From: a virus
Length of the DNA: 64,000 bases
Reading direction: 5' to 3' (one strand)
IMG/VR virus record: IMGVR_UViG_3300012006_000002
Location: 1-64,000 of that record
Positions 17,613-43,574 of the stretch are shown piece by piece. Made by a program: the position numbers and the translations under genes. How positions within the stretch are numbered: position 1 is the stretch's first letter; each line of letters opens with the position of its first letter. The notes under the pieces are model-generated. The model was not told the DNA's origin. It made no database searches and saw only the letters and a list, made by a program, of their open reading frames with translations.

Positions 17613-19898
17613 ATGGCTGTAGGATTTCGCGGAGTAACATTGATTGCCCCCGGCGTAGCTTCATATATTGATGATTCCAAGGCGGCATCCGCAGCCACAT
17701 TCACTCCGAACGCTGTTGCGGTTGTGGGCGAGGCTGATAGAGGCCAGCCCGGTGTAGCGGTAGCGTTTACTGACTCGTCAGCCGTCAATGCATTTTACGG
17801 GCCGTCCACTGCGTCAAAGTCGCTTACTGATGGATTGGTACGAGCGCTTGCCAGCGGCTCAAGCGTGGTCTACGGAGTGCGCGTTGGAAGAGCAAAGCCG
17901 TTTACTGCTAGTTTGTATGGCGCTACCACATTGGCTCAAGCAATTTCGTTGGTTACCAAAGAATATGGAAGATTTTGTAAAGCATGGTCTATAACTGTTG
18001 GTCCATCTACAAAAACTTTTAACCCAAATGGAGTATCTATAGGACAAAAAATTTCATTAAAAATTCATGACGGATCTACTTATATCACAGATAATATTGG
18101 AAGATCAGTAATTGCCCTATTAAGCACTACAGCTAATGCTGGAAGTGTATCTGTTACCAATACAACTGTTACGCTTACGACTAGCACAAACAGTGTTTAT
18201 GTTTATAAGTATACTGATTACCCAAGATTGCAAAATCTTGTGGCTGCAATCAATCAAGATGGTGCATTTATGGCTTCTGTGTCGACAGGAACCAGTGATC
18301 AATTCTTCACTTCTTCCATAGATTATATTTCAGGAGGAGTTATTCCAGCCAGTACTGGAACTCCATATTATCTTGTATCTACTTCTGCAGAAATAGTATC
18401 TGCAATTAATTACGGAATATTATCTTCATTTCTTACGGCAACTCTTGTAAGTTCGGAATCTTCAATTGTTCCCGGAGTTACGCAATTTTCATACAAAACA
18501 AGTTCAAATGGGGCGTCATTTACTGGAACAATTAATAATCTAGCAACACCAACGGCGGCAGCAGGACGGTATCTTACAGTCACTAAAATGAGCGGCGCTA
18601 TCAGCGCTTTGGCATCTACTTCTACTTCTTTTACCGTTACTCATCCATTTGGACTTATACCACTAGGAACAAGTGTCAATATTTCCGGATGTGTTACTAC
18701 AGGTTTCAATGCGACATGGACTGTTGCCTCATCTACTCCTGCTACCACAAGTCCAGTCGCCGCTGGAACTATTACTGTTTCATCTACCTTAGGAACAACC
18801 ACGCTTGCAGTTCCCAGCTCAGGGTCACTTGGAGAGTTATCCATTAATGGTGGTGGAATCATTGTTCCAAATATGACAATTTCCGGCACAGGCGTTCCTA
18901 TCGGAACGGTTATCGCCTCTCCGTTTTCCGCAACCGGGACCGGAAGCGGAGGAATTGGAACATATTTGCTTAATGTCGCCGGTTCCAGTGAGTCAACCAG
19001 TACGGCAAATGTGACATCAGTAGCAATGCTTGGATCTTCAACAGTTGGAACGATTGCTGATTACGATCCTGAAATAACTGCTTCTGACTGGACTGATGCA
19101 TTTGTCGCTTTACAAACTGTTCCCGCATCACTCGTTGTTCCAATGACTAGCCAAGAATCATATCATGCAACCGCCCTTGCACACGCTCAATCCATGTCAC
19201 TTCCCACAGGAAGAAGTGAGCGCATTGTTGTATGCGGCGGTTCGCTTGGAGAAACATATCTTCAGGCGCAGGCGCGAGCAGCAGCATTAAATGACAAACG
19301 CGCCGTGCTTGTTTGGCCGGGTATTAAAGACTTTGATGCCAACCAGTTTCTTGTTACTTTGCCGCCCTATTATCTGGCAGCGCAAATTGCAGGTTTATTA
19401 TGCGCACAAGAAGATGAAGCAACTCCTTTGACAAATTCTCTTATTCAGTTATATGGAATAGAAAGTGTTTCTTCTAACAAAATTATTGACTCTCTTGTTA
19501 GTAATGGTGTTTTTACCGTTCGAAATGATCTTGGAAGAGGTTTTGTCGTTGTTCAGGGATTAACTACATGGACAGGCGATATGAAAATGGCGCGTCGAGA
19601 AATCAGCACAGTTCGCGCTGCGGATGCAGTTATGAGAACTGTCAGAAACGAAGTTCAAAGATATGTAGGTGCTAAATCAAGTTCGGCTCTTGTGTCTACC
19701 ATTGAATCAACGGTACGAAATGTTTTGGACAGATGTGCTGATAGAGGTCTAATTTATGCTGACCCAGCAAACCCTGCTCGATATCCAGCATACGGAAACA
19801 TTGTTGTCAAAACTTTCGGCGATGCATACTATATTGATTTTAATATTTCGCCAGCTAAGCCAGTAAATTACTTGCTTATAACTGCGTATGTATCGTAA
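17613..19898 (+). CDS. Contractile tail sheath protein
   Basis: PGVASYIDDS...VVGEADRGQP N-terminus; AAQIAGL, TPLTN, VQGLTT, REISTVRAAD, ISPAKPVNYL C-terminal sheath motifs; AAGGAG SD. Confidence 0.93.
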   Translation: MAVGFRGVTLIAPGVASYIDDSKAASAATFTPNAVAVVGEADRGQPGVAVAFTDSSAVNAFYGPSTASKSLTDGLVRALASGSSVVYGVRVGRAKPFTASLYGATTLAQAISLVTKEYGRFCKAWSITVGPSTKTFNPNGVSIGQKISLKIHDGSTYITDNIGRSVIALLSTTANAGSVSVTNTTVTLTTSTNSVYVYKYTDYPRLQNLVAAINQDGAFMASVSTGTSDQFFTSSIDYISGGVIPASTGTPYYLVSTSAEIVSAINYGILSSFLTATLVSSESSIVPGVTQFSYKTSSNGASFTGTINNLATPTAAAGRYLTVTKMSGAISALASTSTSFTVTHPFGLIPLGTSVNISGCVTTGFNATWTVASSTPATTSPVAAGTITVSSTLGTTTLAVPSSGSLGELSINGGGIIVPNMTISGTGVPIGTVIASPFSATGTGSGGIGTYLLNVAGSSESTSTANVTSVAMLGSSTVGTIADYDPEITASDWTDAFVALQTVPASLVVPMTSQESYHATALAHAQSMSLPTGRSERIVVCGGSLGETYLQAQARAAALNDKRAVLVWPGIKDFDANQFLVTLPPYYLAAQIAGLLCAQEDEATPLTNSLIQLYGIESVSSNKIIDSLVSNGVFTVRNDLGRGFVVVQGLTTWTGDMKMARREISTVRAADAVMRTVRNEVQRYVGAKSSSALVSTIESTVRNVLDRCADRGLIYADPANPARYPAYGNIVVKTFGDAYYIDFNISPAKPVNYLLITAYVS

Positions 19899-19921
19899 CG
19901 TTTTAGGATAGGAGAAATACT

Positions 19922-20557
19922 ATGTCAGGTTCGAGTACTTCGGCGACAGGAAATAGCAGTCAGGTTTTAGTTGGTGGAAAAATTCTTGTTCGAATGGATG
20001 GAAAAATTGTTGGATTTGCCAACAGTGCGAGTTGTACTGATGCATATGGATTAAATGCCATCCATGTACTCGGCCAATTGCATCCTGTTGATTATGTTCC
20101 TACAGACGCAAGGCACACTATTAACATGAATGTTCTTGTAATGAAAAGCGGAAGTTTAATCAAGGCAAATCTTGAGCCAACTGGCGCAGGAAGTTTTGGA
20201 CTATTGTCAACGAGCGCGTCAATTGCCGGAACAAAATTTGACAACACTCAACAAGATCTTCGATCAAGCGCTTATTACAAAACAGATGAAGGCATTCCGG
20301 GAAGTTTGCGGGTTCTTCATGGCAAAAATTTTGATATTGAAATTATTGCTCCTGACCTAGATTCTCCCGCAACAAAGCAGTACGTTGTTGTAAAATACAA
20401 AAACTGTTATTACAACACTGGTTCGGTTTCTTTTAGTGCAAACACTATTACTGTGCATAATTGTCAATTTCTGGCTTTATATCGCGAAGGATTTTTGACT
20501 GCTGACACAACATCTTTCCCCAAGGATGAATTGATTGATTTGACTAAGACCATCTAA
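19922..20557 (+). CDS. Tail tube protein
   Basis: Follows sheath; ILVRMDGKIVGFANSASCTDAYG...IHVLG...; YKNCYYN...FSAN; AGGAG SD. Confidence 0.85.
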   Translation: MSGSSTSATGNSSQVLVGGKILVRMDGKIVGFANSASCTDAYGLNAIHVLGQLHPVDYVPTDARHTINMNVLVMKSGSLIKANLEPTGAGSFGLLSTSASIAGTKFDNTQQDLRSSAYYKTDEGIPGSLRVLHGKNFDIEIIAPDLDSPATKQYVVVKYKNCYYNTGSVSFSANTITVHNCQFLALYREGFLTADTTSFPKDELIDLTKTI

Positions 20558-20570
20558 TTTGTAAAATCTC

Positions 20571-20599
20571 TTGCAACTTAATTCGACGTGTGATACAAT
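20571..20599 (+). promoter_or_regulatory. sigma70-type promoter overlapping the hairpin
   Basis: TTGCAA-17 bp-TACAAT with TG extension. Confidence 0.6.
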
Positions 20600-20621
20600 A
20601 GTCACACGTCGAATTTATTTT
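20580..20621 (+). terminator. Intrinsic terminator-like hairpin after the tube gene
   Basis: AATTCGACGTGTGA-8 nt loop-TCACACGTCGAATT followed by TATTTT. Confidence 0.75.
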
Positions 20622-20632
20622 AGGAGATACTT

Positions 20633-21079
20633 GTGACTACTGACCAAGAAATGATGCCGCCACAGAGAATGCTGGATTCTGGTTCTTCCTTGACAGACGC
20701 TATTAAATCATCTGCATCAATCGGACCAAAATTTGCTAGCGACACAAAAGAATACAGTCCCGCAAAGGCTCACGAAATTGATGGACCTGCGGGGAAAATT
20801 GGTGTGATTAGAGGGCACATGAATACGCAGCGACTGGCCGGAAAGGCTGTTGCAACTGCTCTTACTGGTATTCAAGTTGATCAACGAACATATGAAATGA
20901 CATGGATGTCAATTATGTTGCAGTTTGTTACTCAAGCGCCGGGTTATCTTCCGGCATATTGCAACGGAAATATTGACAAATTTATTGAAAATATTTACGA
21001 AATGGAAGATCTTGTGTACTACTATCGTGAATGGGAAAATTGGAGGAATTCTTTTCGCGCTTCAAGAGCGGGAACATAG
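20633..21079 (+). CDS. Tail assembly chaperone (gpG-like)
   Basis: Lies between tube and tape measure genes; AGGAG SD with GTG start; ends ...EWENWRNSFR. Confidence 0.8.
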   Translation: MTTDQEMMPPQRMLDSGSSLTDAIKSSASIGPKFASDTKEYSPAKAHEIDGPAGKIGVIRGHMNTQRLAGKAVATALTGIQVDQRTYEMTWMSIMLQFVTQAPGYLPAYCNGNIDKFIENIYEMEDLVYYYREWENWRNSFRASRAGT

Positions 21080-21599: not shown

Positions 21600-21611
21600 G
21601 ATCATATCATC

Positions 21612-24600
21612 ATGCCACCTCCTCCTGCGCCAAGACCCGCACCAGCGCCCCGGCCACCACAACAAACAGATGCGCTTCTTCAGGCTATTCTGGACGCAAT
21701 AACTAATCCTTCAACAATGCCGGGGCCGAATCCATGGACGTTGCCGGGGCCGAATCCATGGACGTTGCCGGGGCCGAATCCATGGACGTTGCCGGGGCCG
21801 AATCCCCAGACGCAACCGGGGCCGAATCCCCAGACGCAACCGGGACCGAATCCCCAGACGCAACCGGGGCCGAATCCCCAGACGCAACCGGGACCGAATC
21901 CCCAGACGCAACCGGCACCGAATCCGCAGACGCATTCGGATCCGAATCCACCCACGCCATTGAAAGATCTTGTTGCTGCGTCATTAAAAGGATTTGCAAC
22001 TAGCGTTAATTCGTTCACCGCACAAGCCGAAGTAGATGACTATCGCATAGGTCAATTATCTCGCAGACATCTTGATGACACAACTCAAAGTATACAGAGT
22101 TATCGAGAAAGAATTCGTGATTTAACTATTGGCACTGGCATGAGTCATGATGAAGTCTATCAATATGCTCAAACAGCCGGACGATATGGTGCTGGAACGG
22201 GGCGTCAAAATACTTTTGACAGTTTGACTCAAGCCAAAACATCAGCAAAGATGTCTTTTGTTCTCGGCGCAAATGCTGAAAATTACAATGACACCATATC
22301 GGCTTTTGGGCGCGCCGGAGCAGTGGGCGCTTCTGGTCAAAGCGGAGGCTTCACGCAAGATCAAAGACAATTCGCCGTAGTTATCGCAGAAACGCTTGCT
22401 TCTGGAAAATTGTTTGATCGTCTCGATGAAGTTTTGTCTAGCATGACAAATCTGGCCAGCCACATTGCCAGTAGGGGCGGAGATGTTGACCCAAGCATGC
22501 TTGGACGTGCGCTGGCATCGGCCAACAACACAGCCCGAGAATTTGGAGGAGCAAAACTTCAGGAAAGAGCTCCTGATTTGTTGTCCAAAATTGATCAAAC
22601 AACCTCCAATCTTGTCAATGATCCCGCGGCATTTGCTGTTTATAACAGAATGCATCCGTCTGCCGCAGGAAATGTTGGCATACAGGATATGCGCGCTTTT
22701 CGCAGAACAATGGAAGGCGGCGACATCATTGAGAAATCTCGGGTATATGGAGGTTTGTATGAACTCCATGGCGGTAATCTTGCAAACCTACGACCGGGAG
22801 GAAAACTTTCCGAGCAAGACATGATTGCTCAGCATAAGTTGTCTCAAGATTATGGCATGACTACTGATGACTATGAAAACACTTTGCGAATTGCCAGTGG
22901 TGTTTCCAGTGGAACAGGGATGCAGCGACTTAACGCTGTTCAGGGATCGTCCGAATATCAACAATTGGCGCGAACAGGATCTGCTGGAGCTGTCAGTACG
23001 TATGCGCGCGTTGCTACTTCAGAAACAAAAGATGACCTTGCAGCAACATTGCAGAAACTTATTACCAATGTTTCCGAAACTCCCGGAGCTGCTCAACTTC
23101 CGGGATCAAAAGAATCATTATTTGTTGGAAAATTAACTGGTTTAAAAAATACCCTTGATTCATCTGGGGATCCCGACTCAATTCGAAATTCACTGATGTC
23201 GTTGATTGCAGGAAACGAGTCAAACACTTCTTCGACTAAAGTAGATTTGGATGTTGGAAATAGACTGAATCAATCAAGAATACAAACAGTTGAATTAAAT
23301 GAAGCGTTCATGAAATTGGCTGGTAATGTAAATCAATTAAATTCACTTCTTGAAATAGATCGAATTAAAGCAACAGCGATGCGGGTGGGTGCTGGATCAA
23401 CTACCCAGTATATTGATAATCCCGGAAATGCCTTGGCCGTAGGCACCGGAACGAACCAACTGCAACGGTTAGCCTCTGGCGCAGCGGTACAAGCCATAGA
23501 CAAGGGTGGAGATTTTATGGAATTCGGATCCAGTTTTCTTGGATCTGCGTCTTCTGCTTCAACACTTCTTGATTCTGCCACATTGAAAGGCGCAATTGGG
23601 AGAGCGCCAAGATTAGCCAGAGCCGGGGTAATGGCTCTCGGAGCTGCTGGAACGGGCTACGCTGCCGTAAAGGCGTTAAACGCAGCACATAGAGAGTTTG
23701 ACGATAATGTTACATATGTAGACGAAGACGGTAAAAACGACAGTTGGAAAACTTTTGCCAGCAAACATGAAGCATTGATAAGGACTGGCGTTACGGCATT
23801 AAGCGGAATTACGGGAGCTGTGTTTGGCGGACCCGCCACGGCATTGGCGGCCGCAGGCGTCAGTGGATTAGCCATGGATTATGCTTACGATGCACTGGGA
23901 ATTAATAAAGTCAAACGCCTCCGACCAGACGGATCTTCTGCCGGAGGGGGTGATGCTTCTGCACCGATCAGCACTGATACCGGAACAGGAATTGTTTCAA
24001 TTGAGCAAACAATGGTTAACGAAATGCGAGTTAGCCGTCTTGTTGTTGAAGGCCTTGAAATCGGAGTCTCAGTTGGAGGAGCAGGCGGGGGATGGGATGG
24101 GGGATCGGGTGGAGGAAGCGCCTCATCTGTCAGACCTCCTCTCGGATCGAAGCGAGTATCCGGACCGGGTTCCGCGCCGGGATCATCCCCCTCTCAATAT
24201 TCTGCCCAATACGCAAACTGGAGATCTGCTACTGGAAAAGGTGATGATGAATTAAATAAATATGTTGATGAGGCAGCAGAAATGTATGGCTCGCAGGGTG
24301 TCACAAGGGATCTTCTGTTTTCCATGATGGCTTCAGAAAGTGGATTCAATCCCGGTGCTACATCAAGCGCAGGAGCGCAAGGACTCATGCAACTCATGCC
24401 GCAATATCACAAGGGCGTGAATGCATATGATCCTCACGACAATATCATGGCGGGAGCCAAGCACATTGCAGGAAATCTTGCGGCCAATGGAGGAGATATG
24501 GAGGCTGCTCTTGCCGCATACAACGGCGGTCAAGGAAATGTCAATCTTCCTTCCGCAAGAGGATATGCACGCAGAATCATGGGAAGAATGGACGGCACAA

Positions 24601-25352: not shown

Positions 25353-25353
25353 T

Positions 25354-27727: not shown

Positions 27728-27730
27728 TTA

Positions 27731-29683
27731 ATGCCTATTACCACTAATTCATTAAAATTAACCTCTGATTTAAAATTATCTTCCATTGCAACTCCTGCTG
27801 CTCCGGGAGCTGGGCTTGTTGTTATATACACCAAGTCTGATGGAAAAATTTATTATCGAGCTGGAGCAACTGGCGCTGAAAGCGTTGTTGGAGTTGGAGG
27901 TTTTGGCAACTACACGATTCCGTCAGTTGACGGATCAAGCGGATATGCACTTGTGACCAACGGATTGGGTACATTAAGTTGGGCACCCTCGCCAGCTCAA
28001 GCAACCACGACGCTGACTAGTCTTGGCATTGGTGCCGCAGCTCCTCCAACCGGAAGATTGGACATATCTGCTGATGGATATGCTAAAGAATTATCAAATT
28101 ATTCTTCTACAAGTATTATGAACATTTCTGGCACAATGTCTTTAAATCAGCCAACAGGAAGTCAGATGAGTTTGCTTCAAACATTTTCTACATCTGTTTC
28201 TTCTTTACGAATAGATAATATTTTGAAGTTTACTTCAACTGGAACGTATTCGTTTTTTGCGGGATCGTCCACCGGCATCGTTGCGGGCATACTATGCCAG
28301 CCAACATATTGGCTCGCTACTGAAAATACTACTTCCCCATCTACTTTAACTGTAGCGCGAGGCATGCAGGTTAGAGTTACTGCAAAAAAAAGTGGCACTG
28401 GATTGGTGAGAATATTTAGCATAGCCGGAATAGAAATATATCCTCCTGCCTATCAAACAGACTCTGCTCTGCAATTATTTCCAACAGGTGTTGCCAGTCT
28501 TTCTACGGATTCGGGATATAATGAATGGTATGGTGTGGCAGGAATTTCCATATATAATCAAGGAAATTCTTCTGTCAAAGAATCTGTTGGACTGGTTGTT
28601 CATGCTCAATCTTCCTCGAATATTACTACTGCAATACTAAGTATTACGTCCAGTGCAAATCCTCCTTCATTTACTATTACTCACGCCATTAAAACAAACG
28701 ATGCTACTCCCGTATGTCCGGCTATTCCCGTCGGAACTCCAGTGACAATTTCTGCAGTAAATACTGATTTTAACGGAACGTGGAGAGTTGCAAGTTCCAC
28801 AGGAGGATCTGCCACTGGAACAATTACTTTTTTAACTTCATCAGCACTAACGGCACCATCAGTAACTCAGTCAAGTACAATTACTCTAGATACCGCATTC
28901 TCTGCAATTTTCCGAGGCGGCCGTGTTGGAATCGGCGTCGATCATCCCAAGTCGGAGCTTGATGTCAAGGGCACATTGTTACTGACCGGCTCTGTCAGCG
29001 GCTATGTAGGATTTAAACCAGCTACGAATGCTGGATCTACTATATATACACTTCCTTCTGCTGCTCCATCTTCTGGATCGTATTTACGATCAGATGCCTC
29101 AAATAATTTATATTGGTCTGATGCGGTATCATCACGGGCGGTCGCAACTGTCAGCAGAACACTTGTGCCAATTTCAAATATTATTGTTGCAGATGATACT
29201 CCCGTTTCATCTATTGTTTTTACTGCTATTCCTCAAATTTATAAAGATCTTTTTATTAGGTTTACTTCTTTAATAAATGATCAATATAATCAATATGTAC
29301 AACTAAGATTTAACAATAGTACAAATTTTTACTACAGCACTGATGAAATTAGTTCTGGAGCGGGTAATGCCAATAATCAATATCCATCTCTTAATTATAT
29401 TATTTGCGGAAGGTCAGCATCAAACATTTATAATGCAGAAAATACCTCAGAAGGAGAAATAAATATTCCAAGATATTCTTCCACAGTAAATGCAAAATCT
29501 GTTTATGGTAGAAGCATTCAACCTCAAGAAATTATTTCAGGAGGTAGCGGATCTCCTACTGTTTGGAGCATAGGCGGTCGATCAAGTCAAACATCAGCGA
29601 TAACCACCATTTCTTTTACTCCCAGTTCTGGATCATTTGTTTACCCTACTTCTTTTTATTTATATGGCGTTTCTGAAGCATAA
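27731..29683 (+). CDS. Fibre-like protein inside the baseplate cluster
   Basis: Shares TPAAPG..IYTKSDG, GRVGIG..P...LDV, YTLPSAAP and FTAIPQIYKDL...LYG modules with upstream fibres. Confidence 0.8.
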   Translation: MPITTNSLKLTSDLKLSSIATPAAPGAGLVVIYTKSDGKIYYRAGATGAESVVGVGGFGNYTIPSVDGSSGYALVTNGLGTLSWAPSPAQATTTLTSLGIGAAAPPTGRLDISADGYAKELSNYSSTSIMNISGTMSLNQPTGSQMSLLQTFSTSVSSLRIDNILKFTSTGTYSFFAGSSTGIVAGILCQPTYWLATENTTSPSTLTVARGMQVRVTAKKSGTGLVRIFSIAGIEIYPPAYQTDSALQLFPTGVASLSTDSGYNEWYGVAGISIYNQGNSSVKESVGLVVHAQSSSNITTAILSITSSANPPSFTITHAIKTNDATPVCPAIPVGTPVTISAVNTDFNGTWRVASSTGGSATGTITFLTSSALTAPSVTQSSTITLDTAFSAIFRGGRVGIGVDHPKSELDVKGTLLLTGSVSGYVGFKPATNAGSTIYTLPSAAPSSGSYLRSDASNNLYWSDAVSSRAVATVSRTLVPISNIIVADDTPVSSIVFTAIPQIYKDLFIRFTSLINDQYNQYVQLRFNNSTNFYYSTDEISSGAGNANNQYPSLNYIICGRSASNIYNAENTSEGEINIPRYSSTVNAKSVYGRSIQPQEIISGGSGSPTVWSIGGRSSQTSAITTISFTPSSGSFVYPTSFYLYGVSEA

Positions 29684-29739
29684 GTAATTCAATTTTATGC
29701 TGAAAATTTTTTTCTGTAGCCAGAATAAATTCTTGTGAG

Positions 29740-32359: not shown

Positions 32360-32385
32360 TATTTGTATTGCGATTAGGAGTATGT

Positions 32386-32928
32386 ATGCCTGTTTCCGTA
32401 ATTTCTTCATCTGTTGTGCCAAATACAACGTTTAGCCGTGATTCGTCTACTTTACTTGAGTTTAATCCAGACATACTTTCTCTTATTAATACGTATACGT
32501 CAATTAATAATTTTAATTTTTTCTTAAAGTCCGCATCTTCTTATAGAGACGCAACTCCCGAGCATACGAAAATATTATTAGGAAAAATATTTCATGCTTG
32601 TGCAAAAATTTTTTCTGGTATTAAATTAGAAGGTCAATTTATCGCCACAGTTCATACAGATATTTATTTATCTCAACTATGCATGATTTGCTATACAATG
32701 GAATCTTGGATGATTGACAATAGATTTAAATCTTCAATCAAACTATCATCCGGCGGCGATGTTGTATTAGACATGAACGCTGAAGCATCACTAGCGTTTG
32801 ATGACATTAATAATTGGAATCTCTTTTCTTCTCTTTTTTCCGAATCTTCAACAAGCGCTCCGTTTGATTTAAATGAAAAACTATTTATATTGTTGAGCGG
32901 ATGTTCTTTTAATTTTTCTACGAGGTAA
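32386..32928 (+). CDS. Hypothetical baseplate-region protein
   Basis: AGGAG SD before ATG 32386; position. Confidence 0.55.
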   Translation: MPVSVISSSVVPNTTFSRDSSTLLEFNPDILSLINTYTSINNFNFFLKSASSYRDATPEHTKILLGKIFHACAKIFSGIKLEGQFIATVHTDIYLSQLCMICYTMESWMIDNRFKSSIKLSSGGDVVLDMNAEASLAFDDINNWNLFSSLFSESSTSAPFDLNEKLFILLSGCSFNFSTR

Positions 32929-32932
32929 TAAA

Positions 32933-34531
32933 ATGTCATTTTATAAAAATTATATTGTAAAACAAAATGACACTATAGAATTAATTGCTGATAAATATTT
33001 GGGCGGATCTCAAAATGCGGGTCAAATTATTGAAATAAATAAATTAAGATTTCCTTATATTTCTTCTAATCCTAAAGATAAATTAAGTTTATCAAAAACA
33101 GAATCGTCGCTTACATCCGCTTTGACATATGGATCCACTTCAATAAATCTATCATCTTATATTTCATCTAAATCTATTAACGAGCAGTATCTTCGTTCAA
33201 GATATATTTTTTTCATATCATCAAGCACCTCAACAGGGTCATTTAAATATGATAAATTTTTTATAAAAAAATATTATTCTCGTGATGAACTCGTTCCATC
33301 AAATACAGATGGCAATCCAATTACAATACCGTCTGGAACACTTGTGTTTGATTGTCCGGTTGTTGCTCCTCCATCAATCTCCGCGCAAGATGCGGGACTT
33401 CTTTCCTTTTCTCAAAATTGCGTTTTTTCCGGATCATTATCCGGAACTACCCTAACTGTTACTTCAATTTCTTCTGGATTACTTTCTGTTGGAATGAGTA
33501 TTTTTTCTACAGAACTATCTGGAGGATCTAAAAAAATAACGGAAAATTTAACTGGATCTGGCGGTGTTGGAACATATCGTATTGTAAATGATTCAAATAT
33601 ATCTGGTTATTACAAAAATTTATTTGCATCTTTTGAATCATCTTCCGTGCCTTTTGCAAGAAAATATTATGTAAAATATTCTTACATTTCCTCTTCTGGA
33701 GAGACACTAGCATCACCGCTTCCTCGTGATCCATATTATGGAAACAGTTTTTCTTTTTCAGTTCCAGCTAATCAATTATTAACTGTTTCGTCTCCGTTGG
33801 TTTGGCCAGACGGAGTGATTGCTGTTAAATTGTATATTGGAACATCTATTGGATTTGAATCATATCAAGCAACTCTTTTTAGTACAAACAGCTCATACAT
33901 AGAACCTGTCAATGGATTAAATAAAACAACTATCTATCCTCCCACATCTAACACTGCTTTAATTGGATTTTCTTCGACGTATTCATCTGGAACTGAATTT
34001 TCAGTTCACGAAAATAGTGATCATTTATTTTCAAGAGTTGTTAGCTATGGAGAAATATTATTTCTCCCATCTAAATTAATGACGCAGTCATTGATTTATA
34101 ATAATTCAAAATCCAATCAATTTATTAGCAGTCTTGGGTCCGATATGAAACTTGACACATCTGGACAACTGATTTTTCAAGGCATTTATGGTGGAGATAT
34201 TGGAACAGTCTCTAATGTGGAAAATCTTCGTCAGTCTTTAAAAAATCGACTTACTACGCGATTTGGCGAATTAACTACTCAGCCAAATTACGGAAATAAA
34301 GCATTGGCATATATTGGTTATAAATATAGATCGTCGTTTTTAATGATGGTTCGATCTGCGTTTATTGAGTGCGTCAAACAAGAGCCTAGAATACAAAAAA
34401 TAGTTTCTCTTGAAATATATTATAATAAAAATTTGTCCGCAGTAATAATAAAAAATTTAATTGTAAAGGTATCCGAAGGGGATTCTCCTGATACTCAGAT
34501 CAGTATTGATAGTCTTGCGCTTCGAACCTAA
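32933..34531 (+). CDS. LysM-like plus gp25/gpW-like baseplate wedge protein with nested insertions
   Basis: YIVKQNDTIELIADKYLG (LysM-like); GDIGTVSNVENLRQSLKNRLTTRFGEL..PNYG...QEPRI (gp25-like). Confidence 0.85.
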   Translation: MSFYKNYIVKQNDTIELIADKYLGGSQNAGQIIEINKLRFPYISSNPKDKLSLSKTESSLTSALTYGSTSINLSSYISSKSINEQYLRSRYIFFISSSTSTGSFKYDKFFIKKYYSRDELVPSNTDGNPITIPSGTLVFDCPVVAPPSISAQDAGLLSFSQNCVFSGSLSGTTLTVTSISSGLLSVGMSIFSTELSGGSKKITENLTGSGGVGTYRIVNDSNISGYYKNLFASFESSSVPFARKYYVKYSYISSSGETLASPLPRDPYYGNSFSFSVPANQLLTVSSPLVWPDGVIAVKLYIGTSIGFESYQATLFSTNSSYIEPVNGLNKTTIYPPTSNTALIGFSSTYSSGTEFSVHENSDHLFSRVVSYGEILFLPSKLMTQSLIYNNSKSNQFISSLGSDMKLDTSGQLIFQGIYGGDIGTVSNVENLRQSLKNRLTTRFGELTTQPNYGNKALAYIGYKYRSSFLMMVRSAFIECVKQEPRIQKIVSLEIYYNKNLSAVIIKNLIVKVSEGDSPDTQISIDSLALRT

Positions 34532-34553
34532 AAGCACGTGCTTTGTTACAGAT

Positions 34554-34562
34554 TGGTATAAT
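34554..34562 (+). promoter_or_regulatory. Extended -10 promoter, probably giving a leaderless transcript
   Basis: TGGTATAAT ends 5 nt before ATG 34568; no SD. Confidence 0.55.
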
Positions 34563-34567
34563 GCATC

Positions 34568-37399
34568 ATGGTAGAATCATATGGCTTTCGACTTTTAACT
34601 CAAGAAGAAATCATGTCAAAAATGGCTAGGTATTTATCTGGTCATACTGAATTTATTAATGATTTTAATGAAGGCAGTGTTACCAGATCTTTACTAGAAT
34701 CTATTTCGCAAGAAATGTTTCGACAGAATTTGACATATGCCCAAGGTATAATGGAATCTGTTCGATCATCTCTTAAGCAAACTTTTAATCAACCACTTCT
34801 TGAGGCATCCAAATCTTACGGGTCTCTTCTTTTAAAAAGAAAACTTTTACCTCCTCCTGCTGACTTAATTGCTGTTCGTCCAACGTTGTCATCTACTGAT
34901 GGCTTTAATACAAGAATTAGCGTCGAGGGATGGATAAATGGATCAGAATTTGAAATCAAAACTATTACCGCTCCAGCTTCCTCTGTTGATTATCCAAATC
35001 CTGCTTCTATCTTAACCAATTCTGTTTTTATTGGAATGAATATTTATTGCAGTACAGATACAGTATCTTCAGACACGCAAATTGCTGAATTTATTACCGG
35101 TACTGGTGGAACCGGAAAATATAAATTATCAAATGGATTAAACACTATAGGATCTCTTCAATCTCCAAAAACATTCATCTTGTATGGAACAGTTTGTGGT
35201 CCAGTGGATTTAGCAATTACAGCAACTGACGCTACGGCTGCATCTGCATCACTGATTGCTGGATCAGCAACTTATTATTGGAGCATGACAACAGTTTATG
35301 GGTCAAAAGAATCTGTGGCAACATCGCCTATATCTGCGTACTTGACCGCACCATCCACAGTAACATTAAGATGGACTTGGGATGCTCTGGCAACAGAGTA
35401 TTATGTTTATAGATCAACTAGTAAATATATGTTTAATTCTATTGCTTGGAAAATTACTAATCCAGCAACATCTAGCACTGGATATGTTACCACTACCGAC
35501 ATAAGTACCAATCTCACGAAACGCCTTTGGCCCGGAAGTGCTTTATGTTATGCTGTAACATCAGTAAATGTAACATTGGGAGTTGTTGCAGAAAGTGCCG
35601 GTAATTCAGTACTTGCATTTCCTACTAAATCAAGTTGTGCGTATTCTTGGCCTATTGTTGAATCTACTGATTCGTTATCTGCTGTTCAGTCATATCAAAT
35701 TTACAGATCTGATTATGATTATTCTGTTTTACCTACTGGAGAAATTAACGCTACTCCTATTCTTGGAGGCTCTTTAACCAACGGTTTTACTTACTATTAT
35801 AAAGTTACAGCGCTAACTGGAATTGCAGAAGGATGTCCTTCTGATTATTATGGAACATTTACTGCGGATGCAACATATAAATCTGCATATGTTTCTTGGT
35901 CTTCATCAGTTGGTGCAATTGGATACAGAATTTATAGATCAACTAATGCATCTTTTCCTTCCTCCGCAATTGATTTTTATGATTATTATTCTAGCAATAC
36001 TTTTTTTATTGATGATAATACCAAATTTTCAACAGGGGGCGCATCTTTACCGTTTTCACGATTAATTGCCATTTATCCTTCATCGCAAAATTTAAAACTT
36101 AATGATACAACTTATACTCCATCTCTTCTTGATTGTGGAATTATAGGATATGCAACTACTACCGGAAAAAGCAGAATTCCTCCTTTTAATTCATCCGCTT
36201 TTTCGGTAAGTGGCCCGTTGGATATTCCTGCAGGAACACAATTTTCTATTCCTAGCACTCAGCAATTTTATACCCTAAAATCTTCATATACTATGCCTGC
36301 CTCATCAACTTCCATATCCGTCATTGTTGAATCTGATTTGTATGGAATTTCATCAAATACTCCAGAAAATACTATTACAAATGTTGTTTCACCTTTATAC
36401 GGAATTGATACAGTTACAAATCCTGCTGCATTTATTAATGGCAGAAATCATGAATCTGAAGAAGAATGGAGAATACGATTTAGTCAAACTTTGGCAAAAT
36501 TATCCAGAGGCACAATTGATTCTATTTCGTATGGAGTTCTTTCTGCCAATCTTACAGATACAAATGGATATATTTATGAATCAGTAAAAAAATCTTTTGT
36601 TTATGAGCCTTCCACAAATGTTGTGAATGTATACATTCATAATGGATCATCAGTCTCTCAATCCAGTCCTGAATTATTAGCTAAAGTTCAATCAATTATT
36701 AATGGATATATTGACACCTCCGGAAATGAAATTGCCGGATATAAACCGGCAGGCATTCCAGTTACTGCATACGCTGCAAATATTCAACTACAATCTGTAT
36801 CTGCCAATATAGTCACTAGCTCCGGATATCCACTATCTATTGTTTCTGAATCAGTTCGAAGAGAAATTGTTTCGTATTTTGATTCACTACAAATAAGCAA
36901 CGGATTATCCACTCCCTCAATTACTAGTGTAACTTGCGCTACATCGGGAAATTCATCATATAACTACAAAATTGTTGGATTTGACTCTTTTGGAAATTAC
37001 ACATATCCATCTCCTATTTTTACAGTAGATAATGCCAGTTCAAATATTGCCAGTCCCGGAAATGTTATTACTTTTTATAATAGCAACCCGTATATAAAAT
37101 ATTACGACATTTTGCGATGGACGGGCAATTCATGGGGACTTGTTGCAACTGTTTCGTCTACAGTTTCCAGCAATACTATTATTTATACAGATAACGTTGT
37201 CACTCTTGCTGATTATATTTTTTCCACTACTGCTGGTTCTGCTAATTTTTATTCGGATACATTAATTTCTCGTATTTTAAAAATAAACGGAATTTTGTCA
37301 GTTACTTTATATGTTCCAAGTTCATTAGGAACTCATCAGGATTATATAGAACCTACACTTGGCAGCATTCTTGTTCTAGGAAAAGTATTGGTGAAATAA
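34568..37399 (+). CDS. Baseplate J-like wedge protein with two insertions
   Basis: DFNEGSVTRSLLE, IPAGTQF, VTNPAAFINGRNHESEEEWRIRF...LSRGT, GYKPAGIPV. Confidence 0.9.
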   Translation: MVESYGFRLLTQEEIMSKMARYLSGHTEFINDFNEGSVTRSLLESISQEMFRQNLTYAQGIMESVRSSLKQTFNQPLLEASKSYGSLLLKRKLLPPPADLIAVRPTLSSTDGFNTRISVEGWINGSEFEIKTITAPASSVDYPNPASILTNSVFIGMNIYCSTDTVSSDTQIAEFITGTGGTGKYKLSNGLNTIGSLQSPKTFILYGTVCGPVDLAITATDATAASASLIAGSATYYWSMTTVYGSKESVATSPISAYLTAPSTVTLRWTWDALATEYYVYRSTSKYMFNSIAWKITNPATSSTGYVTTTDISTNLTKRLWPGSALCYAVTSVNVTLGVVAESAGNSVLAFPTKSSCAYSWPIVESTDSLSAVQSYQIYRSDYDYSVLPTGEINATPILGGSLTNGFTYYYKVTALTGIAEGCPSDYYGTFTADATYKSAYVSWSSSVGAIGYRIYRSTNASFPSSAIDFYDYYSSNTFFIDDNTKFSTGGASLPFSRLIAIYPSSQNLKLNDTTYTPSLLDCGIIGYATTTGKSRIPPFNSSAFSVSGPLDIPAGTQFSIPSTQQFYTLKSSYTMPASSTSISVIVESDLYGISSNTPENTITNVVSPLYGIDTVTNPAAFINGRNHESEEEWRIRFSQTLAKLSRGTIDSISYGVLSANLTDTNGYIYESVKKSFVYEPSTNVVNVYIHNGSSVSQSSPELLAKVQSIINGYIDTSGNEIAGYKPAGIPVTAYAANIQLQSVSANIVTSSGYPLSIVSESVRREIVSYFDSLQISNGLSTPSITSVTCATSGNSSYNYKIVGFDSFGNYTYPSPIFTVDNASSNIASPGNVITFYNSNPYIKYYDILRWTGNSWGLVATVSSTVSSNTIIYTDNVVTLADYIFSTTAGSANFYSDTLISRILKINGILSVTLYVPSSLGTHQDYIEPTLGSILVLGKVLVK

Positions 37400-37403
37400 C
37401 ATA

Positions 37404-39011
37404 ATGTCAAATCCTTCTACTTTATCTGAAGATACTAGCATTATTCAAAGATTATTTGAACAACTGCCATCTGCTTTTTCTCGTGAAGAAGAACCCAGAG
37501 ATATTCTTACTTTTTCTTTTGTAGACTCAACAAACACTATTTTTTCACAATCTACCTCCTCATCGTTCATTTCCTTTTCAATAAAAGATTTTGTTTTGAA
37601 TATTTCCTCAAATATTGTGTATATTGAATCAGAACATCTTGATTTATCACAATTCACATTTGATTCATTATCTAATTATTTTAATTACAAATATTTTTAT
37701 CAAGGATTAAAATGCACTATTTCTTCTCAGTATGCTTTTACTGATTCCAATCTTCCCGCAACCATGCTGTGCGAGGGAGGATATTTTTTAACTGGCCCTT
37801 TTTCCACTTCTTCTTCTCTTACAATATCTCGATTTACAAGTAATAATTTTTCATTAATTTCATCATTAGCGTTATCACTGCTTGACAATAATAAAAAAAT
37901 GACTTCAACTCTGGGTCAAATTGATCTTCGTGTAGCATCCGGCTACTGGCTGGATTATTGGGGTCATTTGCTAGGAATTGATAGAAATACTACGGATATT
38001 GAAAATGATGATCAATATAGATTAAGAATACAATTTCAATCTCTTGGTGTGCGATCAACAAATTTGGGGATTCAAAAAGCTGTCTCTACATCTGTGCAGC
38101 GAAAGTGTTTTGTTTCTGATGGCGGTAAACCATATGTTTTTAGTGGATCTTATACAAGTTCTGCAAATACTCCACTTCCAAGTATTGGAACAATTTATCC
38201 TTCTTATTTATGGATATCGACCGCAACTTCTTTAACGTCTACTACCACTGTTGGCAGTATTAGAAAGAACTCCGTCGAATCTACTGCTGTTTCACTAGGA
38301 ATTCCTATGATTAGCACAACTGCAGGTTTGAACACAGTTGTTTTTAGCAGTGTTTCATCTACCTTTGTTGATTTTTTTAAAGTTGGGGCCATCATTGATG
38401 GATATAAATTAATAGTGCCAGATGGCACTACTGCTGCATTTGAAGTTGGAAAAACATATACTGTTATTGCTCTGCCCAGCAACAATCCGCAACAAGCACT
38501 TCGGTCTGTTGCAGGTTTTGATCCCGCAAATAGTGCAATTACTTTTACAACAAATGCGATTTATTTATCCACAACAAATGTTCTGGCAAGCAGAATCCCT
38601 GTTGCCACAATAGGATCATCTTTTGTGGCAGCAAATACCGGAACAACTGCGACAAATAACAACTATTCTCTTGCTGGAGGAAAATTTGAACTCAATCCTT
38701 TTCCAGATAATTGTTATATTACCAACCTTACTGTGTCTAATACATCTGACTCAACCTCAAAAAATATTACTGTAACATTATCGAATAAACTTCTTTATAC
38801 ACTAGAAAGTGTAATTGTAAATATTTATGCACCACAGTGGTCAATTCCTTCCGAAAAACTTGGACCCACAACTGGGTCGGGAACATTTGCGGTGAGAATA
38901 CAATTAAATAGCAACGAAACAACACTCCCTCAACCTGTTATTTCTGCGGCTACTTCCGCAATTAATGCGTGGCGACCTGCGGGAATGCCTTATGTGATAC
39001 AATCATACTAA
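37404..39011 (+). CDS. Baseplate wedge protein (gpI-like) with insertion
   Basis: ASGYWLDYWGHLLGIDR...ENDDQYRLRI and AINAWRPAG motifs; follows J. Confidence 0.8.
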   Translation: MSNPSTLSEDTSIIQRLFEQLPSAFSREEEPRDILTFSFVDSTNTIFSQSTSSSFISFSIKDFVLNISSNIVYIESEHLDLSQFTFDSLSNYFNYKYFYQGLKCTISSQYAFTDSNLPATMLCEGGYFLTGPFSTSSSLTISRFTSNNFSLISSLALSLLDNNKKMTSTLGQIDLRVASGYWLDYWGHLLGIDRNTTDIENDDQYRLRIQFQSLGVRSTNLGIQKAVSTSVQRKCFVSDGGKPYVFSGSYTSSANTPLPSIGTIYPSYLWISTATSLTSTTTVGSIRKNSVESTAVSLGIPMISTTAGLNTVVFSSVSSTFVDFFKVGAIIDGYKLIVPDGTTAAFEVGKTYTVIALPSNNPQQALRSVAGFDPANSAITFTTNAIYLSTTNVLASRIPVATIGSSFVAANTGTTATNNNYSLAGGKFELNPFPDNCYITNLTVSNTSDSTSKNITVTLSNKLLYTLESVIVNIYAPQWSIPSEKLGPTTGSGTFAVRIQLNSNETTLPQPVISAATSAINAWRPAGMPYVIQSY

Positions 39012-39023
39012 TGGAGAATAAAC

Positions 39024-42000
39024 GTGAAGCCAAGTAATCCATATTTAGGGGCATTGCCATTACGAACCAGTAGAATTTCCAGCATTGATGTTGATGGAAA
39101 AGCTTGGGATTCCGTTCTTTTTCAACAATCAAAATCTATTCTTGATTTTGATTTAAATGTAATGCAGAGAATTTTGCAAGAAAATATTGCACAATTATCA
39201 AGATCAATATTTTATTCTGGATTTACTCGTTCATCTTCATTAACTGCAGATAGCAATAATGTTTATCTTGCCGTATCAAGAATCAATGCTCTTGGAAATA
39301 TCATCAGACTTATTGATACAAATGGTACTGATGGAAGAATTTCTATTCCAATATCTTATACAACCAATGTAAATACATCTCAGTATTCAAGAATTTTTTT
39401 ATGGATTGAAATCTGGTTTCAGGAAATTATTCCGACAACTATTTCTGAATCTTTTGACGGATCATCGCCGGTTGAATTTAAATCTTCTGTTATTCCTTAT
39501 GGAGGAGGAGTTCAAAATAATTCAACTTTAACAAACGAATTATATGATCCAACATTTGGATCTGAAACAACTCGCAGAATTCAAACAAGATGGAGAATTC
39601 GTCAAACTCCAGCAATAGATCCTACTCCAGTAGTTGCAGAAGCTTCTTCAATTAGCGTGACGGCAAATCAAAGCGGAGCATCTGGAACTATTGTAGTTCC
39701 AAATCCAACGAATCTATCTGGAACGATTACTGCAGCAGGAAACACCGTAAAAATGTACGGTGTTAATACAAGCGCTTTATATCCAAAAATGATTCTTGTT
39801 CAAACAAATACCACCGGGGGGAATTTTGGCAGCGCTACAGCCGGAACAACAGCCACTATTGTATCGGTTGATAAGCTTGATGGAGGGTCCACCCCAGCAG
39901 GGGTCATCACCATCAAGGCAAATGGAACATCATCTTGCGCTGTTGGATCCGTATCTTTTACGACCTCAGGATATATGCACGGCACAACATTTGTGGTTCC
40001 TCCTTTGGGATCTCAAAAACTTATTACTGCAAATACTACGTATGGATTTCCTTCAGAAACAACACTTGGAAGTAAAACAGTGTTTGGCGTTGACCAAGCA
40101 AGATCCGATTCATATAATATTAATTTTGCGAATAATGTTTCGTATGTTTCTTCCAGACTTTCCGGCATTACTGTCGCGGCATCATCCGTAAGCACAGCTA
40201 CACTTTACGACACGTATGCGTATAAATTATCTTACTCTTACACTGATATATCTGAAAATGAATCACTAGCAAGCATGACTTCCAACACTGTTTCAAATTT
40301 TGCTGGAAATCTTGCGAATACAGGTTTGGCAAGTACTACTTATTCTAACAAGATTACTTGGACCGCATCCACGTCAGCTAAACAATACTATATTTATCGC
40401 AATATTTTTCGTGGTCAAATTACAAGCATTGCTGGCAACAGCACTACTGGAGCAGTATATACACTAGCGAATACAAATTCCTATGCGTTACCAATTGGAA
40501 CTAAAGTAACGACTACTGGAGCATCCGTCAGTAACTATAATGTTACTGATGGAATTGTTACTGCATCTACTACAAATACTTTTACTATTGGTAGCATTAC
40601 TATTACCACCTCTACTACCGTAACTAACGGTGTGGCAAAACCAGATTCACTTCCGTTTTCCTCCGCGCAACTTATTGATACTATTATTCTTTCGGCACCA
40701 GCGACAACAAATTCTGCAGGAGTTGTTGCTAGTGGCATGACTGCAACAATTCCTGCATCTGCTACTTCAGTAACACAAAGTAATTCAGCAGCACTTCTTA
40801 ATGCAGCAGGTACAGGTTCTTTGTATTCTTTGACCGGAATTAATACAACTCTTCTCAAGCCGGGAATGATCATATCTTCTACTTCTAAAATTAATTCAGG
40901 AACTCACAGAATTCTCTCCATTACCACCTCTTCTTCAACAAACGGAACGGTGCTTTGCTATGGAACTTCTGCTCCTACTACTACTGGTTCCACTGCGACA
41001 ATTACTGATCTTTCGGTAAGTGTAGACGCCAACACTCCGGTATATTACGATAATATTAACAGTTTTTCAGAATCGCCATTTACCAAACCTTCAACAATAA
41101 CAGTTCAGGCGGTCTATCCTACAAATGTTGCTCCTTTTGAGACCATATCCGGAAGCGGTGGGGATCCCCGAGTATTTGCTCAGGGCGGCCGTATTGAGGT
41201 TATACTTACCGGATCTATTAGCGCCAGTGGCGTACTTACAGTTGCTGCATTAAATACTAATGGATATTTGCAAGTTGGACAACGAATAACCGGAATTGGT
41301 GTTCCCGATAATGTTTTTATTACTGGAATAACAACGGCTTTTAGTAGTAGTGGCAACGGAACTTATACGGTATCTGGAATTTCATCAGCTATTTCATCCA
41401 CTACTTTATATGCTTGGTTTACTCCTTCTAAAACTTTTCAGCGATCAAGCAAAGTTACCGGCTTTACGGAATTATATGATCCTTATGTGTACGTTGCTGG
41501 AGATGGAAGTTCTTCAGATGCGTCAGTTCTTAACACTGTTGATGGACGAGTATATGGTTTGCCTTTGGCATATGTATACAAAGACGACTCATCAGTTGTT
41601 TTAACTGATTTGCGAAATGTAATAAATTCATTAAATACCGGAACCATAAATGCCACTACGGACATCACTACGACAAATCCGATTTCTGGACTTGCCCTGC
41701 GACTTGCTGCGTCAAGTACCGGAACATCGCTGACTGTTTCTGGGGGCGGATCAACGAACGCAGACCTTTCCTTAACGCCAAAAGGCTCCGGAGTTGTTTC
41801 AGTGGCTACCAGCCTTGCCGTTCCGGCCGGAACAGCAACATTGCCTTCGTATTCATTTGCGGGACAATCATCTACGGGTCTGTATTATTCTCTTTCTAGC
41901 GCTGGAGTAAGTCAAATTGGACTATCTGTCGGTGGAACACCTGTTGTTACTGTCAGCCCTTTATCAACTGTTTTTGCAAGTACTTTGACAAGTGCAGGCA

Positions 42001-43574
42001 TTGTCACAGGAACAGCTTTTTCTTCCACCGGACTAGAGGGCGGTTCAGCCGGAAGATATTTAGGGAGAACAAGCAACGGCGCTCCCTCTAACGGCACCTA
42101 CTCTATTGGCGATTATGTTGTTGATACTTCAGGATATGTTCGCGTTTATAATGGAACTGCGTGGATTATTGCTGGAGCTAATGCAGGAGACCCAAACACA
42201 TGGTCAGGTTTGCAAAGTTTTGTGAGATCAAGTCTCAACATAAGTTCAGCAGCAGACACTGTTGTAAACACGACCATTGGACCCGGATCTGCAACCATTG
42301 CTGCAGATTTAAGTCCTAATTATGTTTCTGGAGCAAGATTTGTATCTCCGACATATTCCAATAATGGCACTACAAAAACAATTGGATCTGCAGTAAACGT
42401 CGATATTGCAAATCTTCCCATTGCTGCAACAAATGTTTCTATTACAAATTCATATGGACTTCGTATTACGGGTACAGCAACAAACGCTACAAATGCCTAC
42501 AGTCTTTATGTATCGGGTTCTACTGGATCTACTTTGTCCTATGCAATGTATGTTGCAAGTGGATTATCGTATTTTGCTGATAACGTAACTATTGCAAAAA
42601 TTACTAAAATTACTGATAGCACTGATGCTACTAGCACAACTGCCGATGCTGCTCTTGTCATATCGGGTGGTCTTGCTGTTGCCAAGAAGCTTTATGCCGG
42701 TTCTTTGTACGGCCCGCTTATTGGAACCGTAGGTGCTGGGACAGGAAACGCTAACACGGGAGCGTTTACCACTCTAACTACTAGCGATACTACCGAAGCA
42801 ACAAATACTTCTACTGCCTCCGTTGCTATCACCGGAGGTCTTGCTGTTGCCAAGAAAATTTTTGCTAATCAGTTTAACGGCCCTCTTGTTGGAGCCGTCA
42901 CTGGAAATGTCACTGGAAATGTGACCGGATTGCAGACCTATACGATTGCAGCAGGCAGTACTGCCGACCTTATTTCCGCAACAATGGCTACAAGTGATTT
43001 TTTCAGGATTAGAGTAGGGGGAAGCGCTGATGCCGGTTATGCGGAAATAGCAACTGCTGATAATGGATCGGAACCAATACATGTCCGTCAGTATACTTGG
43101 GGGTATCTTAACGGAAGTTCTGGAGACACTGATTCATGGAAAAACCCAACCCGAACCGCTACTCTTCTTGATGCATCTGGAAACACTTCTTTTCCGGGAA
43201 CATTATCAGCAGACAAAATGAGCGGCGGTGCAGCACCACGTTGCTTTATTCCTGCCGGAGCATTTACATCACTTAACGCAACGTTGTCAACAGACACTAC
43301 TACTGGACAATATCAATGGACATTTGCTGCTGCAAATACTGCGTATGTATATTTAGTTGTTCCTGCAAACTACGGTGGAGGGACATGCTCGTTTACTATT
43401 CATGGCACTGCAACGGGTAATCTTACTGCAAAATATGGAACAACATCTGCTGCTGACACAACATTTACTTCAGGAGCAACAATACTAGTTGCTAGCACGG
43501 CATACTATATTAAATTAACATGTGCCGTATCACAAACGGCAACTTTGACAGGCATGTCAATTGTATTTGGATAA
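39024..43574 (+). CDS. Long baseplate-anchored tail fibre
   Basis: VLFQQSKSILDFDLNVMQ anchor, ETTRRIQTRWRIR, many fibre modules, ends GMSIVFG; GGAG SD with GTG start. Confidence 0.85.
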   Translation: MKPSNPYLGALPLRTSRISSIDVDGKAWDSVLFQQSKSILDFDLNVMQRILQENIAQLSRSIFYSGFTRSSSLTADSNNVYLAVSRINALGNIIRLIDTNGTDGRISIPISYTTNVNTSQYSRIFLWIEIWFQEIIPTTISESFDGSSPVEFKSSVIPYGGGVQNNSTLTNELYDPTFGSETTRRIQTRWRIRQTPAIDPTPVVAEASSISVTANQSGASGTIVVPNPTNLSGTITAAGNTVKMYGVNTSALYPKMILVQTNTTGGNFGSATAGTTATIVSVDKLDGGSTPAGVITIKANGTSSCAVGSVSFTTSGYMHGTTFVVPPLGSQKLITANTTYGFPSETTLGSKTVFGVDQARSDSYNINFANNVSYVSSRLSGITVAASSVSTATLYDTYAYKLSYSYTDISENESLASMTSNTVSNFAGNLANTGLASTTYSNKITWTASTSAKQYYIYRNIFRGQITSIAGNSTTGAVYTLANTNSYALPIGTKVTTTGASVSNYNVTDGIVTASTTNTFTIGSITITTSTTVTNGVAKPDSLPFSSAQLIDTIILSAPATTNSAGVVASGMTATIPASATSVTQSNSAALLNAAGTGSLYSLTGINTTLLKPGMIISSTSKINSGTHRILSITTSSSTNGTVLCYGTSAPTTTGSTATITDLSVSVDANTPVYYDNINSFSESPFTKPSTITVQAVYPTNVAPFETISGSGGDPRVFAQGGRIEVILTGSISASGVLTVAALNTNGYLQVGQRITGIGVPDNVFITGITTAFSSSGNGTYTVSGISSAISSTTLYAWFTPSKTFQRSSKVTGFTELYDPYVYVAGDGSSSDASVLNTVDGRVYGLPLAYVYKDDSSVVLTDLRNVINSLNTGTINATTDITTTNPISGLALRLAASSTGTSLTVSGGGSTNADLSLTPKGSGVVSVATSLAVPAGTATLPSYSFAGQSSTGLYYSLSSAGVSQIGLSVGGTPVVTVSPLSTVFASTLTSAGIVTGTAFSSTGLEGGSAGRYLGRTSNGAPSNGTYSIGDYVVDTSGYVRVYNGTAWIIAGANAGDPNTWSGLQSFVRSSLNISSAADTVVNTTIGPGSATIAADLSPNYVSGARFVSPTYSNNGTTKTIGSAVNVDIANLPIAATNVSITNSYGLRITGTATNATNAYSLYVSGSTGSTLSYAMYVASGLSYFADNVTIAKITKITDSTDATSTTADAALVISGGLAVAKKLYAGSLYGPLIGTVGAGTGNANTGAFTTLTTSDTTEATNTSTASVAITGGLAVAKKIFANQFNGPLVGAVTGNVTGNVTGLQTYTIAAGSTADLISATMATSDFFRIRVGGSADAGYAEIATADNGSEPIHVRQYTWGYLNGSSGDTDSWKNPTRTATLLDASGNTSFPGTLSADKMSGGAAPRCFIPAGAFTSLNATLSTDTTTGQYQWTFAAANTAYVYLVVPANYGGGTCSFTIHGTATGNLTAKYGTTSAADTTFTSGATILVASTAYYIKLTCAVSQTATLTGMSIVFG

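Follow-up and report, generated by a model that had tools for sequence, protein, structure and literature searches.

Optional small domains, some probably nested, in the contractile-tail proteins of an uncultured large myovirus

The window analysed here, a stretch of 64,000 nucleotides (nt) of virus IMGVR_UViG_3300012006_000002, makes up the opening 64 kb of an IMG/VR record of 102,766 bp with an estimated completeness of ~59%. It carries a block of contractile-tail genes. Comparison with related phages indicates that this lineage has probably accreted optional small β-domains of three families, termed modules A, B, and FN3, on outward parts of the tail core. The modules occupy loops or linkers, and some appear to be nested one within another.

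The block is formed by plus-strand open reading frames (ORFs) from 17613 to 43574, whose frames are uninterrupted. According to the ORF list and to Pfam and PHROG matches, it contains a sheath, a tube (phrog_985), a tape measure with SLT and M23 domains, a tube initiator, a LysM-gp25 protein, a Baseplate_J protein, a baseplate neighbour, and a 1516-residue fibre. The genes are those of a contractile tail, and the virus is a large, uncultured myovirus whose tail core is SPO1/phi812-like. A preliminary description of the DNA had named the sheath, initiator, LysM/gp25, and J ORFs, and each has Pfam or PHROG matches to the family proposed. Among cultured phages, those closest to this virus are either SPO1-like or 90 kb in size, for example Bordetella PHB04 and Pseudomonas Touem01; they match in the conserved cores only, at 31–39% identity. 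Relatives were gathered by a locus search with the sheath alignment and by genome searches; a single-protein scan of viral contigs gave none. Hidden Markov models (HMMs) were seeded on the motifs of the preliminary description. The search covered every ORF of the contig, 18 homologues of the sheath, and the tail regions in four related viral contigs, with shuffled databases as the control. The sheath, initiator, baseplate, and fibre genes described below, together with their modules, all lie on the plus strand.

The tail sheath and its insert

The sheath protein (o17613, 17613–19898) is composed of 761 residues. Its core is built from both termini, namely the N-terminal ~105 residues and residues ~485–761. 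A peripheral domain lies between the two parts, and an A/B insert spans residues 298–456. The protein matches PF04984 with 37.6 bits (cut-off 31.4) and phrog_279 with an E value of 6.7e-46, and scores 23.1 bits against PF17482, under the cut-off of 26.9. Its AlphaFold2 (AF2) model, with a predicted local distance difference test (pLDDT) score of 71, is best matched by the 563-residue phi812 sheath chain, with a Z score of 28.8 and a root-mean-square deviation of 4.0 over 478 aligned residues.

Nineteen sheath homologues of 577–1243 residues share one common core, and their middle region differs in blocks. The present sheath is ~180 residues longer than the compact forms of the clade (573–586 residues), which lack the inserted segments. 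The site of the A/B insert is found in three states. It is empty in the compact forms P0014 and G003, holds an intact module A in P0004 and P0006 (661–667 residues), and holds a module A split by module B in the present phage, P0002, and P0003.

The N-terminal half of the split module A covers residues 298–328 (18504–18596), as delimited by a splice test and by the orthologues with an intact copy. Module B follows at residues 335–402 (18615–18818), where the module B HMM matches with an E value of 3e-18; it is absent from P0004 and P0006. The C-terminal half of module A, with the motif TGSGGIGTY, covers residues 415–456 (18855–18980) and is placed by the HMM, the splice test, and the orthologue alignment. 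The break falls after 'LTVTKMSG' and before 'GGIIVPNMTISG'. In-silico removal of residues 329–414 lifts the score for module A from 10 bits to 50–53 bits and yields a full-length alignment. For reference, the C-terminal half by itself scores ~34 bits, and 100 shuffled N-terminal halves give at best 46.5. The splice test and the three-state alignment indicate that module B of the sheath is nested within module A.

Among the relatives, module A occurs at five sheath sites, located after residues 105, 137, 180, 239, and 293 of the compact form. Each site carries 1–3 copies, and the number of copies per sheath ranges from 0 to 6.

Just 5′ of the sheath gene, at 17299–17370, the DNA contains five to six tandem 12-nt units (GAAGTAACCCCC), as read at the DNA level.

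Enlargement of the baseplate and fibre proteins

The baseplate J protein (o34568, 34568–37399) has 943 residues and matches PF04865 with 70.6 bits (cut-off 21.1). It contains an N-terminal core at residues 1–101 and the J core at residues 544–776. Module A is located at residues 117–190 (34916–35137), an array of FN3 domains at residues 222–505, and a further FN3-like module at residues ~780–880. The 371-residue J protein of Touem01 is free of these segments. Its residues 11–95 and 96–324 align to residues 15–101 and 553–776 of the present protein. Touem01 residues 95 and 96 map to residues 101 and 553, and are therefore 451 residues apart in the present phage.

The J proteins of two relatives, G001 and G002, carry a second module A within their second FN3 domain; four orthologues lack it. 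Excision of this module A from the G001 and G002 proteins raises the FN3 match from 11.7 to 29.1 bits and makes it full-length, with an HMM that was built without the G001 and G002 sequences. In these relatives, module A thus appears to be nested in an FN3 domain. Insertion of modules inside one another, as proposed in the preliminary description, is therefore borne out by splice tests and orthologue alignments in both the sheath and the relatives' J.

The LysM-gp25 baseplate wedge protein (o32933, 32933–34531) has 532 residues, with LysM at its start (residues 7–43) and the gp25 domain at residues 421–501. It matches phrog_975 with an E value of 3.7e-28 and stays below the Pfam cut-offs for PF01476 (20.0 bits, cut-off 20.9), PF04965 (18.9, cut-off 27.2), and PF10934 (22.7, cut-off 32.9). 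BLAST aligns the 207-residue protein W of Touem01 to both its LysM and gp25 parts, and homology to LysM-gp25 proteins appears clear from the sequence comparison. The two parts are separated by ~50 residues in Touem01 W and by ~375 residues here. The ~320 extra residues, which follow the LysM start and precede the gp25 domain, contain a module A at residues 160–220 (33410–33592) and an FN3-like region at residues ~225–365. The gp25 orthologues of G003 and G004 lack module A. Orthologues in the clade range from 459 to 535 residues for gp25 and from 843 to 1421 residues for J.

The protein encoded next to J is an 'I-like' baseplate protein of 535 residues (37404–39011; phrog_7378). Residues 1–249 and 483–534 are conserved and flank a variable middle of 233 residues, vs 111 residues in G001. 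Its lengths in the clade are 442–740 residues.

The guanine-plus-cytosine (GC) content of the gp25 and J genes and the next gene (window positions 32000–40000) is 32–35%, vs 43–49% in the sheath, head-side, and replication genes. This dip could reflect amino-acid composition or a separate origin of the wedge block.

The tube initiator (29777–32359, 860 residues) is enlarged in another manner. It has a conserved N-terminal domain at residues ~39–231 and matches PF23980 with 47.5 bits (cut-off 27) over profile positions 25–156 of 258. The part in common with orthologues of 389–624 residues and with Touem01 is the N-terminal ~190 residues. The remainder is a lineage-variable C-terminal extension in which no copy of A, B, or FN3 is found, and initiator lengths in the clade are 389–860 residues. 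The claim that core motifs have been pulled apart therefore holds for J, LysM-gp25, and the sheath, but not demonstrably for the initiator.

The long fibre (o39024, 39024–43574), of 1516 residues, has a conserved N-terminal region of ~200 residues. It is followed by an FN3 junction at residues 387–464, a weak module B at residues 475–534, a weak second module A at residues 588–642, and a clear module A at residues 723–786 (41190–41381), the A copies being assigned by HMM. The fibre is probably a linear array.

Module families and their carriers

Module A is ~60 residues long and has the consensus FTGsISGTTLTVTxVxSGxLxVGQxIxGxGVxxGTxIxxxxTGTGGxGTYxV. An HMM made from two seeds recovered just those two copies, and the working HMM was built from four seeds plus relatives. 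It matches LysM-gp25 (E 3e-17), J (E 6e-11), and the clear copy of the fibre (E 1e-11), and the best E values in shuffled databases are 0.17–0.29. With the split copy of the sheath, module A is present in all four genes for which it had been claimed. Modelled alone by AF2, it reaches a pLDDT of 90 and is predicted to fold independently as a small β-barrel. VIA-align gives weak similarity to EF-Tu-domain-2-like barrels (Z ~5, maximum 5.5) and a Z score of 4.3 to an E1 FCCH domain.

Module A has no match in the curated families. Pfam gives none at E ≤ 5 except a chance DUF5862 match (0.46), and NCBIfam gives none. The best hit of a PDB profile search is to antibodies, at an E value of 0.29, and Foldseek against the PDB returns nothing at E ≤ 0.001. 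PHROGs 38233 and 21413 include the module within longer proteins. Module A is thus an unnamed domain as far as Pfam, NCBIfam, and PDB sequences are concerned.

The module is abundant. It is found in 7,736 protein clusters (50% identity clusters, E ≤ 1e-3), often as tandem copies and with up to 29 matched stretches per protein. It occurs alongside RHS repeats and a pectate-lyase-like domain, and in the middle of a DUF3383-family sheath. BFVD matches at TM 0.74–0.86 fall in proteins of uncultured phages whose annotations read HK97 capsid, P22 gp10-like, side-tail-fibre, tip protein J, and tailspike; the module is likewise present in a giant virus, in proteins with collagen repeats. A tblastn search of 50,697 cultured or deposited phage records with module A gave no match at E ≤ 1e-3.

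The relative G004 (a 184-kb record, 97% complete) has at least 12 copies of module A in its tail region, some of them in the initiator and in several extra large proteins between sheath and baseplate. Its sheath-to-J distance is ~40 kb vs 15 kb here.

Module B is ~65 residues long. Its HMM matches, at E values of 1e-16 to 1e-20, the sheath copy, three copies in the virion structural protein o5344 (residues 158–220, 251–313, and 380–441), and one in the fibre-like protein o27731. The sixth copy claimed earlier, in the long fibre, is weak. The whole-protein search missed it, whereas scoring the region in isolation gives a full-length match of 15.3 bits, a score reached by none of 300 shuffles. 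Copies from o5344 score 29.4 bits against Pfam E1_FCCH (PF16190; cut-off 29.5) and 19.6 bits against End_beta_barrel (PF12195), while the sheath and o27731 copies have no Pfam match. From these profile scores, module B is assigned as an E1-FCCH/endosialidase-barrel-like domain.

The HMM for FN3 recognizes three units in J and one in the fibre. BLAST alignments of these units are colinear with tandem FN3 arrays annotated with PF00041 (E 1e-9), with the W, YxIYR, and YYY motifs in register. The segments have no Pfam match at E ≤ 5. The alignments indicate that the units in J and the fibre are true FN3 domains. The motif by which they had first been noticed straddles two domains, covering strands F–G of one and A–C of the next. 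The FN3-like region proposed for LysM-gp25 was not detected by the phased HMM and is identified by BLAST, which aligns it to the A-plus-FN3 region of the relatives' J (E 4e-7). Profile–profile comparison finds no homology between the three families.

Two further module carriers lie outside the core proteins. The fibre-like protein o27731 (27731–29683, plus strand, 650 residues) has its module B at residues 309–382 (28655–28876; E 1e-16). The virion structural protein o5344 (5344–8175, plus strand, 943 residues) has three, at 5815–6003, 6094–6282, and 6481–6666 (E 1e-18 to 1e-20). It is 42–44% identical over its full length to the 'virion structural protein' of the T4-like cyanophages S-PM2, S-RSM4, and Syn1. 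A cyanophage-like protein beside an SPO1/phi812-like tail core suggests that the virion is a mosaic; it also hints at an aquatic and possibly a cyanobacterial environment.

Other short modules, which are neither A, B, nor FN3, are common to the fibre-like proteins at 2995–5322, 9329–12568, 27731–29683, and 39024–43574. Identities are 63% over 82 residues between o2995 and o9329, 47% over 73 residues between o27731 and o2995, and 31% over 146 residues between o39024 and o9329. These modules also occur in fibre proteins of G003 and G004.

The tape-measure protein contains SLT at residues 895–979 and an M23 peptidase at residues 1089–1156. Near its N terminus is a tandem array of ~13 units of 24 nt (8 residues), at 21672–21981. 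A small ORF at 50232–50747 encodes an SLT-like domain with 34% identity to tape-measure residues 897–977, and has small-ORF homologues in G001 and G002.

Origin, role, and significance of the modules

The favoured explanation is that, over long evolutionary time, small domains were gained in loops or linkers of the tail proteins, sometimes within a domain already inserted. Related phages carry none, one, or several modules at equivalent sites. Presence of the inserts varies among related genomes for the sheath, gp25, and J, some close relatives being without modules, and the compact homologues (Touem01 J and W and the short clade sheaths) lack the inserted segments. New copies would stem from infrequent recombination, either illegitimate or at the level of whole domains, and would then be inherited vertically and now and then lost; this does not imply a dedicated copying system.

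The modules would be displayed on the sheath surface and the baseplate rim. Such display on the tail surface is most likely by analogy with published sheath add-on domains and immunoglobulin-like accessory domains (PMC9230969), and it fits the company that module A keeps in fibres, tailspikes, and capsids. Their most likely function there would be to adhere weakly to polymers of the host surface, in particular glycans, and they may also brace neighbouring subunits.

Several observations weigh against this explanation. The sheath model is of moderate confidence in the insert, with pLDDT values of 45–69 over residues 300–470. The three sheath states are unrooted, so that loss could account for them as well as gain. 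The termini of an FN3 domain lie far apart, yet an FN3 array sits inside J. Enlargement of the initiator and the fibre is an extension or a linear array rather than a demonstrated loop insertion. The systematic loop insertion first proposed is therefore retained for optional, reused modules, but does not demonstrably extend to the initiator and probably not to the fibre. Surface exposure and nesting topology are predicted from sequence and comparison.

Could the modules be mainly structural, cementing sheath and baseplate subunits and stabilizing a long tail with no host binding? An outer domain of the phi812 sheath does touch a neighbouring subunit, as cited in PMC9230969, and BFVD includes a fusion of module A to a capsid protein of the HK97 type, a setting in which cementing is common. 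The presence, copy number, and site of the modules nevertheless vary freely among close relatives, which is hard to square with a fixed lattice contact. They also turn up in fibres, RHS proteins, and tailspikes of the pectate-lyase type, all of them proteins with adhesive or enzymatic roles. A mainly structural role is accordingly unlikely.

The age of the copies bears on how they spread. Module A copies in this genome are 38–57% identical to one another, and the longest DNA similarity between module copies is 27 nt at 74% identity. Module GC content tracks that of the host gene and ranges between 34% for gp25 and 46–50% for the sheath. Because of these three features, the insertions appear to be old. 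Orthologous copies in G001 and G002 are nearest neighbours, as vertical descent predicts. An active and possibly dedicated recombination route that copies modules between genes of the phage genome, live or recent, had been suggested in the preliminary description. In its favour, the three families recur in at least six genes, insertion boundaries coincide precisely with domains, and in G004 two pairs of A copies in separate genes are mutually nearest, at 53–65% identity. The divergence of the copies, the GC content, and the vertical pattern nonetheless speak against such a route, as does the lack of a reverse transcriptase (RVT_1) on the contig, which is ~59% complete. A running copying route is consequently quite improbable, and the sequence comparisons point to old events with occasional domain-level recombination. 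The idea of a diversity-generating retroelement was dropped, since the contig shows no RVT_1.

That the inserts are an artefact, be it low-complexity Ser/Thr-rich filler, misassembly, or fused ORFs, is hardly credible: they are indeed Ser/Thr/Gly-rich and of low confidence in the sheath model, but the same architecture recurs in other samples that are independent (identity is 83% for P0002, 64% for P0003, and 92% for the J homologue P0021), module A models confidently by itself, the HMM E values of 1e-11 to 1e-22 compare with 0.04–0.3 for shuffled databases, and the reading frames are uninterrupted.

The gradual accretion of optional surface domains follows a principle that is already known, both for sheath cores with optional outer domains and for promiscuous accessory domains on phage structural proteins. 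Aksyuk et al. reportedly described a nested-domain topology for T4 gp18 in 2009.

In sheaths of the phi812/A511 type and T4 gp18, as here, an N/C-terminal core carries extra domains between its parts, averted from the tube, and the number of domains rises with genome size (Evseev et al. 2022, PMC9230969). Such add-on domains are proposed there to help adhesion or stability. The layer described here differs in that it is placed atop a phi812-like form and consists of a 60-residue barrel and an FCCH-like barrel, not of immunoglobulin-like (Ig-like) sandwiches. The barrel moreover occupies five loops in relatives with 0–6 copies, and one module is split by another.

Promiscuous Ig-like/FN3 accessory domains are likewise small β-domains on capsid, tail, and fibre (Fraser et al. 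2006, cited in PMC9230969; T4 Hoc, PMC10385173). They are swapped among phages, dispensable, and proposed to bind carbohydrates weakly, and the FN3 modules found here belong to this class. Unlike these domains, module A is no Ig-like sandwich, and the modules are mostly internal insertions, not terminal additions. Module B resembles the E1 FCCH barrel of siphophage tail tubes (PF08813 with PF16190), which faces outward (PMC13576161), and the endosialidase barrel (PF12195) in being an outward add-on or an inserted domain of tail proteins. It differs in that only the o5344 copies approach the Pfam threshold and in that the sheath barrel sits within another inserted domain.

A broader reading is doubtful, though somewhat less so than the alternatives above. 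Module A may be an undescribed and very widespread plug-in family of virion surfaces, whose TGxGGxGTY loop would form a new glycan or ligand site and whose gain, loss, and nesting would tune adsorption. If so, the whole tail surface, and not the fibres only, would be a receptor-binding organ.

To the known principle the present case adds three things: a single site seen in three states, insertion at multiple sites across a clade, and a domain family that is abundant yet unnamed. The clade provides a natural series for the acquisition of decoration domains, from an empty site to one domain to a nested pair, with five alternative loops and 0–6 copies. An abundant 60-residue domain escapes annotation pipelines in thousands of phage structural proteins. 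The insertion sites mark loops of the sheath and baseplate that tolerate added domains. Should the modules bind polymers on the host surface, adsorption would involve the sheath and the baseplate rim as well as the fibres.

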